From Octopus vulgaris (Eukaryota): DNA of 64,000 nucleotides. The position numbers and the translations under genes are program-made. A model generated the notes under the pieces. It was given only the letters and a program-made list of their open reading frames with translations, was not told the DNA's origin and ran no database searches. The DNA lies in contig OX597833.1 in NCBI GenBank assembly GCA_951406725.2, forward strand, positions 69,812,001 to 69,876,000, in the 5' to 3' direction. Below, piece by piece: positions 55,996 to 58,210 of the stretch (the stretch's first letter is position 1; each line of letters opens with the position of its first letter).

Positions 55996-56035
<40 letters not shown>

Positions 56036-56319
56036 CAACAATTGAGGGTAAAATTAATTAATTATTAATCAATTTCACCAAGTGTTCAGTATGCAAAGGG
56101 ACCATTTAAGGCGAATTCAAATTATTACATTATATAAAAGGGCTTAGTAAAATAAATTACTTTGCCGCATACTGAACTCATTAGAAATAGCAGCTAAAAA
56201 ACTTTTTTAAAGCTATTTCTAATACTTAAAGAAAATCTCTCTCATATATAGTGTTTGCTTAATTCAACTCACAAAAGTTTGGGGGTAAGGACATCAAAAA
56301 ATCAAATGCTAAGGTTATT

Positions 56320-56371
56320 TGAGAACGTACGTTTCAAGATTAGTCAAAACAACACTTCTATCATCAGCTCA
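56320..56371 (-). ncRNA. Type I hammerhead motif F7, unit 1
   Basis: UGAG-CUGAUGA-U-AGA.AGU..ACU.UCU-U-GAAA-CGUACG-UU-CUCA; stem III palindrome ACGUACGU. Confidence 0.85.
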
Positions 56372-56864
56372 GAAACTCCTTGGTTTGGATTTGGAAACAC
56401 TGAAAGTAAGAACATACCCTTTCGAAGATCCGCTCGTAACTAACAGTGCCAACAAACCCAAATAAGCAAGCGAAGAATTTCTGTTCTCCCCTTTCCACCA
56501 GCGTGGGTTAAAATCATCAAACACTATGCTTATTTCGGTAAAATCCGAAGCATTAATTAGAGGGAGATTAATTATAATTTCAACAATTGAGGGTAAAATT
56601 AATTAATTATTAATCAATTTCACCAAGTGTTCAGTATGCAAAGGGACCATTTAAGGCGAATTCAAATTATTACATTATATAAAAGGGCTTAGTAAAATAA
56701 ATTACTTTGCCGCATACTGAACTCATTAGAAATAGCAGCTAAAAAACTTTTTTAAAGCTATTTCTAATACTTAAAGAAAATCTCTCTCATATATAGTGTT
56801 TGCTTAATTCAACTCACAAAAGTTTGGGGGTAAGGACATCAAAAAATCAAATGCTAAGGTTATT

Positions 56865-56916
56865 TGAGAACGTACGTTTCAAGATTAGTCAAAACAACAC
56901 TTCTATCATCAGCTCA
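56865..56916 (-). ncRNA. Type I hammerhead motif F7, unit 2
   Basis: Identical to unit 1. Confidence 0.85.
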
Positions 56917-57409
56917 GAAACTCCTTGGTTTGGATTTGGAAACACTGAAAGTAAGAACATACCCTTTCGAAGATCCGCTCGTAACTAACAGTGCCAACAA
57001 ACCCAAATAAGCAAGCGAAGAATTTCTGTTCTCCCCTTTCCACCAGCGTGGGTTAAAATCATCAAACACTATGCTTATTTCGGTAAAATCCGAAGCATTA
57101 ATTAGAGGGAGATTAATTATAATTTCAACAATTGAGGGTAAAATTAATTAATTATTAATCAATTTCACCAAGTGTTCAGTATGCAAAGGGACCATTTAAG
57201 GCGAATTCAAATTATTACATTATATAAAAGGGCTTAGTAAAATAAATTACTTTGCCGCATACTGAACTCATTAGAAATAGCAGCTAAAAAACTTTTTTAA
57301 AGCTATTTCTAATACTTAAAGAAAATCTCTCTCATATATAGTGTTTGCTTAATTCAACTCACAAAAGTTTGGGGGTAAGGACATCAAAAAATCAAATGCT
57401 AAGGTTATT

Positions 57410-57461
57410 TGAGAACGTACGTTTCAAGATTAGTCAAAACAACACTTCTATCATCAGCTCA
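57410..57461 (-). ncRNA. Type I hammerhead motif F7, unit 3
   Basis: Identical to unit 1. Confidence 0.85.
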
Positions 57462-57927
57462 GAAACTCCTTACCCCCAAACTTTTGTGAGTTGAATTAAG
57501 CAAACACTATATATGAGAGAGATTTTCTTTAAGTATTAGAAATAGCTTTAAAAAAGTTTTTTAGCTGCTATTTCTAATGAGTTCAGTATGCGGCAAAGTA
57601 ATTTATTTTACTAAGCCCTTTTATATAATGTAATAATTTGAATTCGCCTTAAATGGTCCCTTTGCATACTGAACACTTGGTGAAATTGATTAATAATTAA
57701 TTAATTTTACCCTCAATTGTTGAAATTATAATTAATCTCCCTCTAATTAATGCTTCGGATTTTACCGAAATAAGCATAGTGTTTGATGATTTTAACCCAC
57801 GCTGGTGGAAGGGAGAACAGAAATTCTTCGCTTGCTTATTTGGGTTTGTTGGCACTGTTAGTTACGAGCGGATCTTCGAAAGTATGTTCTTACTTTCAGT
57901 GTTTCCAAATCCAAACCAAGGAGTTTC

Positions 57928-57979
57928 TGAGCTGATGATAGAAGTGTTGTTTTGACTAATCTTGAAACGTACGTTCTCA
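57928..57979 (+). ncRNA. Type I hammerhead motif F7, inverted unit
   Basis: tgagctgatgatagaagtgttgttttgactaatcttgaaacgtacgttctca. Confidence 0.85.
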
Positions 57980-58158
57980 AATAACCTTAGCATTTGATTT
58001 TTTGATGTCCTTACCCCCAAACTTTTGTGAGTTGAATTAAGCAAACACTATATATGAGAGAGATTTTCTTTAAGTATTAGAAATAGCTTTAAAAAAGTTT
58101 TTTAGCTGCTATTTCTAATGAGTTCAGTATGCGGCAAAGTAATTTATTTTACTAAGCC

Positions 58159-58210
<52 letters not shown>

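Follow-up and report, generated by a model that had tools for sequence, protein, structure and literature searches.

The window analysed here, a stretch of 64,000 nucleotides of Octopus vulgaris DNA, contains a head-to-head tandem array of 545-bp hammerhead ribozyme units, and the question that it raises is from which template and by which enzyme such an array was placed within a (TA)n microsatellite. The reading defended below is that of a young two-armed insertion, made by a Penelope-like (probably Neptune-type) enzyme that copied one likely circular RNA into (TA)n, and its probability is put at about 0.62.

The insertion target on the left is a compound (TA)n/(CA)n/(TACA)n microsatellite (55890-56031), and a (TA)n tract (58163-58210) lies on the right, so that (TA)n meets the element at both its ends, as had been stated in an earlier, sequence-only reading of the locus. 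Arm 1 (56032-57471, minus strand; 1440 nt or 2.64 units, 33% GC) has a period of 545 with 0 mismatches, which bears out the near-identical tandem units of that reading, and its outward ribozyme-sense 3' end (56032) is designated site A. The proposed strand switch was also recovered: the 5' ends of both arms meet in the microhomology TCCTT (57467-57471), by which the arms overlap and which leaves a spacer of 85 nt. The inverted arm 2 (57467-58168, plus strand; 702 nt, 1.29 units), whose outward ribozyme-sense 3' end is designated site B, differs from the unit by 0 substitutions and by two 2-nt deletions in G runs (57810/57811 and 57882/57883). A 'tail' of ~100 nt between sites B and A (56032-56130, minus strand) is found at the outer end of arm 1, whereas that of arm 2 lacks it. 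Unit numbering follows the ribozyme sense, with q1 at 56576, q545 at 56032, and the cut at q253/254; the minus strand of arm 1 thereby holds two cut-to-cut monomers, at 56324-56868 (545 nt, 33% GC, non-coding) and 56869-57413. Elsewhere in the window, the sequence just past the right TA tract (58214-58260) resembles, by eye, the 5' end of a tRNA-derived SINE, and a 184-bp unit occurs in two tandem copies that are 92% alike (60494-60870).

Open frames of at least 100 aa are absent from the element, the longest frames of the unit measuring 63-77 aa, and the focal element does not encode the RT plus GIY-YIG endonuclease ORF of an autonomous EN+ Penelope-like element (PLE). It displays the characteristics of metazoan non-LTR retrozymes, i.e., at least two consecutive tandem units with a type I hammerhead in each, a non-coding sequence of less than 50% GC without an LTR-type frame, and a multicopy, dispersed occurrence with signs of retrotransposition. 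The focal element is a young insertion of a new, dispersed, non-coding hammerhead-repeat family of known retrozyme type, in support of the earlier view of a very young non-LTR retrozyme insertion with an intact-looking type I hammerhead. The accompanying suggestion that 545 nt is unusually large does not hold against a published unit range of 51-972 bp, as given in the preprint 10.64898/2026.07.22.740005.

Hammerhead 1 (56309-56381, minus strand; type I, CUGAUGA core at 56361-56367, GUU triplet) has its predicted cut at 56324/56323, hammerhead 2 (56854-56926, minus strand) at 56869/56868, and hammerhead 3 (57399-57471, minus strand), of which the 5' side stops at the inversion junction, at 57414/57413. 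These are the three cuts listed in the sequence-only reading, which had missed the fourth ribozyme, on the plus strand of the inverted arm (57918-57990, core at 57932, predicted cut 57975/57976). The ribozyme consists of CUGAUGA, a stem II with a basal U-U, GAAA, a 2-bp stem III, a palindromic GUAC loop, and the GUU triplet. Searching 54000-60000 against Rfam at E<=1 returned no hammerhead match, only hairpin and TA-repeat miRNA matches below the cut-off, and the ribozyme call therefore rests on the conserved core and covariation. In an alignment of 11 variants from the focal and sister families, of which two rows are off by one column on the 3' side, the 12 stem pairs are 93% paired and 7 of them have changes on both sides; none of 500 shuffles scored as high, although related sequences may beat shuffles even without structure, and slid controls were at most 50% paired.

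Self-cleavage of the transcript is predicted on the basis of this structure and covariation. Stems II and III are weak and the triplet is GUU; stems that are equally weak are reported for the axolotl ribozyme HHR_Amex2, of which the dimer cuts better (PMC7229834), and one of nine frog retrozymes tested in vitro cut, according to the above preprint (10.64898/2026.07.22.740005). The proposal that the ACGUACGU palindromes could pair between copies is in line with the predicted cofolding of two copies of the 13-nt motif at -13.0 kcal/mol. Folded as a circle, the monomer reaches -144.7 kcal/mol, versus -105.3 +/- 5.2 for 60 shuffles (z -7.6) and -114.8 kcal/mol for its opposite strand, and the sense strand was the more stable one in all 10 units tested. 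Forcing the active ribozyme within the circle has a predicted cost of 11.3 kcal/mol, and the circle is therefore predicted not to recut itself readily.

With the unit as query, the 2.8 Gb genome (227 contigs) yielded 1274 first-look candidates, 40 of which were scored, and 168 matches on many contigs. Exact patterns matched 1598 ribozyme motifs of the GUU type and 263 of the GUA/GUC type (control 0), and a diverged start-domain motif gave 1097 matches (control 0). Sister units measure 562-591 nt and have 59-86% identity to the focal unit, and the sister families span units of about 545-590 nt. The mapped set comprises 72 insertions in 68 loci, derived from 38 unit-search loci and 36 pattern loci (the latter from the first 100 of the 263 pattern matches listed) minus six that were dropped before counting, i.e., two segmental duplicates, three loci without a unit, and one with unreadable flanks. 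In sequencing archives the unit was present in 20 of 24 runs (10 studies), as contigs only and none on record as RNA, and unit coverage in three guessed-RNA runs and one DNA run bears on presence of the family, not on expression, strand or ends. That this is a real mobile hammerhead family is considered almost certain.

Several relatives stood out. Loci L167-L204 form a superfamily of 560-600-nt hammerhead repeats with the start domain in common, including one with a CCGAUGA core and a long stem II and another with a non-palindromic stem III. Other hammerhead-like motifs, with the GAAACGUACGU stem III of the family and unrelated flanks, are found at L112, L114, and L115. The one-armed locus L031 (G000:C5) contains a rearranged 937-nt unit twice with an identical internal junction, as a rearranged circular template would give.

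The inverted arrangement is no single oddity of this locus and turned out to be the commonest form of the family: the 72 insertions divide into 52 complete head-to-head pairs, 19 with one arm or another arrangement, and one that was initially incomplete. The ribozyme-sense 3' ends point outward, into TA, and among 124 outer ends site A (q535-10) accounts for 63 and site B (q436-465) for 54, with seven elsewhere, sites A and B being ~100 nt apart. Circular permutation of the ends, which had been expected, is thus not observed, since 117 of the 124 are confined to two fixed sites, and head-to-head inversion is the usual state of the family. Moreover, the complete pairs comprise 48 A+B and four A+other combinations, with neither A+A nor B+B, and the initially incomplete insertion proved to be A+B once completed; were the ends chosen independently, about half of the pairs should be mixed (0.5^49 = ~2e-15). 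The absence of A+A is the more telling because the unit search favours A ends, and ends in the set selected by ribozyme pattern, which is free of query-phase bias, behave alike. Among 19 sister-family loci, 13 are clearly A+B and six are one-armed or of unclear class. Site choice does not depend on microhomology alone, as a longer TATATAT at q327 of the unit is used by none of the 124 ends.

The inner 5' ends, by comparison with the outer ones, are scattered over the unit, 2 of 88 lying near the cut, and the arm junctions mostly consist of overlaps of 1-5 nt or short inserts. Inserts at L025, L041, and L049 include a short hairpin or TA-containing templated pieces, which we take to resemble products of polymerase-theta end joining. 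In 48 of the 52 two-armed insertions (TA)n flanks both sides, rendering any target-site duplication unreadable; the pure TA tracts measure ~29 nt per side, versus a length-weighted background of 22, and are uncorrelated between sides, a picture that is not decisive for synthesis of TA at the ends.

Both fixed sites belong to a conserved RNA domain, in which A and B each lie ~10-17 nt past a hairpin ending in CCCU. In unit 2, a conserved three-way junction (56627-56723, minus strand) presents site B (56664-56683) in a single-stranded loop as a putative reverse transcription start module, and a conserved hairpin (56592-56624) followed by site A (~56573-56579) forms a putative second one (56573-56624, minus strand). 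The fold of this start domain is paired in 97% of cells and shows double changes in 6 of 33 pairs, across families that are 59-65% identical. The pair of hairpin-plus-UA elements may thus represent two enzyme-binding modules.

The head-to-head form, together with two fixed outer ends that are each used once, is the ground for assuming Penelope-type machinery, which we consider very probable; the footprint of such machinery, a head-to-head inverted 5'-truncated copy with the tail at one end only, is seen in the 48 of 52 complete pairs that are A+B. A GIY-YIG search gave 6136 candidates, of which 150 were scored, many of them with an intact 781-aa frame (RT plus GIY-YIG). One young Neptune-type element, inserted in (TA)n, ends on the 3' side at two positions ~40 nt apart, and two of its 17 loci are two-armed, both with one long and one short end. 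Comparison (blastn, nhmmer) of the unit with the ends of this and other families at 50 GIY-YIG loci, chosen from the 150 scored and with Naiad-type elements outside the sample, detected separate small retrozyme insertions only. As no coding element bearing the sequence of the unit emerged there, the helper enzyme is inferred from the footprint and is probably Neptune-type. Two leads towards a coding relative were discarded: the weak match at L143 is a separate fragment past a TA tract, and the common 5' flank of three loci on contig C24 is not a PLE body, being a segmental duplication with a mariner-like fragment.

The Neptune-type element has features of its own. Whereas PLEs are described as having a single ORF, an upstream second frame runs into the beginning of the 781-aa RT/GIY-YIG frame at L150 (1468-5171, G000:C6) and within L147-L162; this frame is 479 aa from stop to stop in L150, L158, and L160, and Pfam and Atlas searches gave no convincing match for it (one weak Atlas lead at 0.77). 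The terminal repeat of L150 contains, ~70-110 nt before the short 3' end, a hammerhead-like motif with a palindromic stem III, which is kept in related families and in which UUGAUAA replaces CUGAUGA, a change in both partners of the 3-8 pair.

What the enzyme copied can be approached through variants among units, positions in homopolymer and TA-site stretches being masked. Between the two arms of an insertion, 38 differences were counted over 14,713 shared positions. An arm has its own partner as the closest sequence in 31 of 41 loci (ties included; strictly closest in 13), and in 10 another locus is closer. At sites seen at least three times per insertion, 216 non-majority alleles are carried by every copy, 64 are singletons, and 19 are mosaic; 28 of the 216 are private to one insertion (20 in the diverged L093 and eight elsewhere). 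Since both arms and most units share a haplotype, one template likely served both ends, in keeping with the earlier prediction of copying from one template, and two primings on one template haplotype are regarded as probable. Among 213 passages of the arms across the cut site, only two local indel events were seen, and these near-clean crossings indicate that the template was either a ligated circle or never cut. A circular template is the option towards which we lean. An excess of purine over pyrimidine transitions on the sense strand among template-level variants (22 versus 10, binomial p 0.012; L093 excluded) was considered as a lead to RNA editing, which is not claimed, given the comparison with singletons (17:18; Fisher p 0.14), an uncertain polarity, and G-U-tolerant selection as a possible explanation.

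The mosaic sites are found in nine of 33 multi-unit insertions; they are mirrored in both arms of five (L008, L032, L048, L089, and L094), show periods of 3 or 4 units in three insertions, and give no single A-to-B geometry. They are consistent with multimeric circles, linear multimers, or later duplication or conversion. In addition, L036, L037, and L043 (G000:C24) are segmental duplicates within ~120 kb of a single insertion, adjoining a mariner-like transposase fragment, and have ~4, 6, and 2 units, from which it follows that unit number is subject to later change or to assembly effects; the length of arrays and their periodic variants are therefore weaker as proof of rolling.

These observations bear directly on an alternative in which the same Penelope-type two-ended insertion uses an uncut linear multimer from a source array, making a circle unneeded and leaving homogeneity to the sources and unequal exchange. 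Mosaic variants mirrored in both arms and the unequal unit numbers among duplicates of one insertion agree with such a template, as does the in vitro behaviour of the PLE protein PAc, which is described as taking unprocessed RNA, with no reads ending at its cut site (PMC11167929). It is nevertheless judged unlikely: 24 of the 33 multi-unit insertions are without any mosaic site despite the many haplotypes of the family, which implies a frequent one-unit bottleneck; the longest arms reach 8.3 and 9.8 units and most are far shorter; and the hammerhead has been retained, with covariation, across families that are 59-65% identical. If, on the other hand, priming had occurred once and the first cDNA had primed itself by fold-back, arm 2 would be a copy of arm 1. 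Such a route has been proposed for head-to-head Penelope structures (PMC3846280), it accounts for shared haplotypes and short junction overlaps, and its geometry is compatible with 31 of 44 simple loci, including the focal locus. It is held to be improbable, because in 13 of the 44 simple A+B loci the arms cannot be contained in each other (the junctions of 3 of these 13 are blurred by alignment overlap), and because it offers no reason why arm 2 should end at the fixed site that arm 1 does not use, and why ends at that of arm 1 or at the unused TATATAT never occur.

That the unit is the pseudo-LTR of a longer coding PLE, and the arrays its truncated pieces, would fit the match of frog retrozymes to PLE terminal repeats that is reported in the preprint of Li, Clavereau and Pollet (10.64898/2026.07.22.740005), and a rare coding copy could have been missed given that 30 of the 1097 start-domain matches were listed as loci. 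Against this, units are arranged directly head to tail, with no intervening sequence, none of the 17 sister-family loci read has PLE-like open frames, the sole recurring non-TA 5' flank is the mariner-like fragment in a segmental duplication, and the ends of PLEs at the 50 GIY-YIG loci (Naiad-type elements outside the sample) gave no match, leaving this explanation very improbable. Hardly any weight is given to an assembly chimera as the origin of the array or fold-back at the focal locus, for which the two deletions in G runs of the inverted arm could speak. Similar deletions occur sporadically at the same runs elsewhere (6 of 165 copies for one G run, 19 of 213 for a C run), and those of the inverted arm are likely consensus errors; moreover, a fold-back read artefact would not yield 52 complete two-armed insertions among 72 with their own junctions and A+B ends. 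None of the 32 pieces listed (of 501, from four runs) bridges 57467-57471, in a type of data in which contigs break in repeats and individuals may differ.

For the preferred reading, two-ended Penelope-type copying of a likely circular RNA, the following course of events is proposed. The tandem array would be transcribed and cut by its hammerheads, aided by pairing of palindromic stem III between copies, and the monomers, at times dimers to tetramers, would be closed by ligation to circles whose fold is predicted to keep the ribozyme inactive (11.3 kcal/mol to force it). A dimeric RT/GIY-YIG protein might then bind the two hairpin-plus-UA modules ~100 nt apart and cut both (TA)n strands, upon which each DNA 3' end would prime reverse transcription, one at A and one at B, passing the ligated cut site for up to ~10 units. 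Finally, the cDNA ends would be joined via microhomology or short templated inserts. The most specific version, in which a dimeric Neptune-type enzyme with one subunit per module copies a single retrozyme circle, mono- or multimeric, from both break ends by rolling with strand displacement, is offered tentatively.

If true, the one-A-one-B rule would account in general for the 'tail' and the inverted pseudo-LTR of Penelope elements, and the 170-nt start domain would act as a transferable signal directing the two-ended insertion of DNA copied from RNA. According to PMC8557442, an explanation of the tandem and inverted Penelope structures is still lacking, and the return of retrozymes to the genome via a circle and a Penelope-type enzyme has been proposed, not shown, in prior work. 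A literature search, with subscription papers and supplements outside it, retrieved neither the one-A-one-B rule nor shared arm haplotypes for a retrozyme. New here is the family itself, and its value is that of a countable readout of Penelope-type integration: it offers many young countable insertion scars, a strict rule, a covarying start domain, and an intact candidate enzyme in the genome, and the published PAc-type in vitro assay makes the insertion model directly testable.

In LINE-1 twin priming, one RNA is primed by both strands of the target and the inverted 5' part is joined by microhomology, while the first cDNA ends close to the site of the second priming. The inverted part and the microhomology join recur in the present family, and so, in the preferred reading, does the priming of both strands on one RNA, whereas the sequences of its arms overlap and each of the two starts is fixed; a first cDNA abutting the second priming site is seen at 6 of 44 loci versus ~6.4 by chance. 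Metazoan non-LTR retrozymes, as described by Cervera and de la Pena 2020 (PMC7229834), share the tandem non-coding units with one type I hammerhead each, the low GC content, and the lack of an LTR; HHR_Amex2 of the axolotl shares the 2-bp stem III and the U-U at the base of stem II, and some mussel circles leave the ribozyme unexposed, as does the predicted circle here. The same source shows circles of 170-400 nt for coral, mussel, and axolotl retrozymes and names PLEs as likely helpers. The present unit exceeds these Northern-blot circles and falls within the genomic range of 51-972 bp given by Li, Clavereau and Pollet 2026 (10.64898/2026.07.22.740005), who also point to kinship with PLE terminal repeats; two-armed insertions, two once-used fixed ends, and a strict (TA)n target were not found in the accessible descriptions of metazoan retrozymes.

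Resemblance extends to the EN+ PLEs of the Neptune clade (PMC8557442, PMC3846280, PMC11167929) in the partial tandems, the head-to-head inverted 5'-truncated copy, the one-ended tail, the two internal start sites, and the AT-rich or microsatellite targets. Inverted copies and a one-ended tail are known PLE features (PMC8557442, PMC3846280), and rolling on a circle has been proposed for PLE tandems (PMC4209133). Unlike these elements, the family has no ORF, and its tail measures ~100 nt versus 30-40 nt in PLEs (Craig et al. 2021, PMC8557442; Arkhipova et al. 2013, PMC3846280). PAc is reported to cut and extend both strands, with two start sites flanking the tail (Frangieh et al. 2024, PMC11167929); in vitro, ribozyme cleavage is not needed for its insertion, nor target homology for its starts, whereas the start sites of the present family have UAUA homology to theirs.
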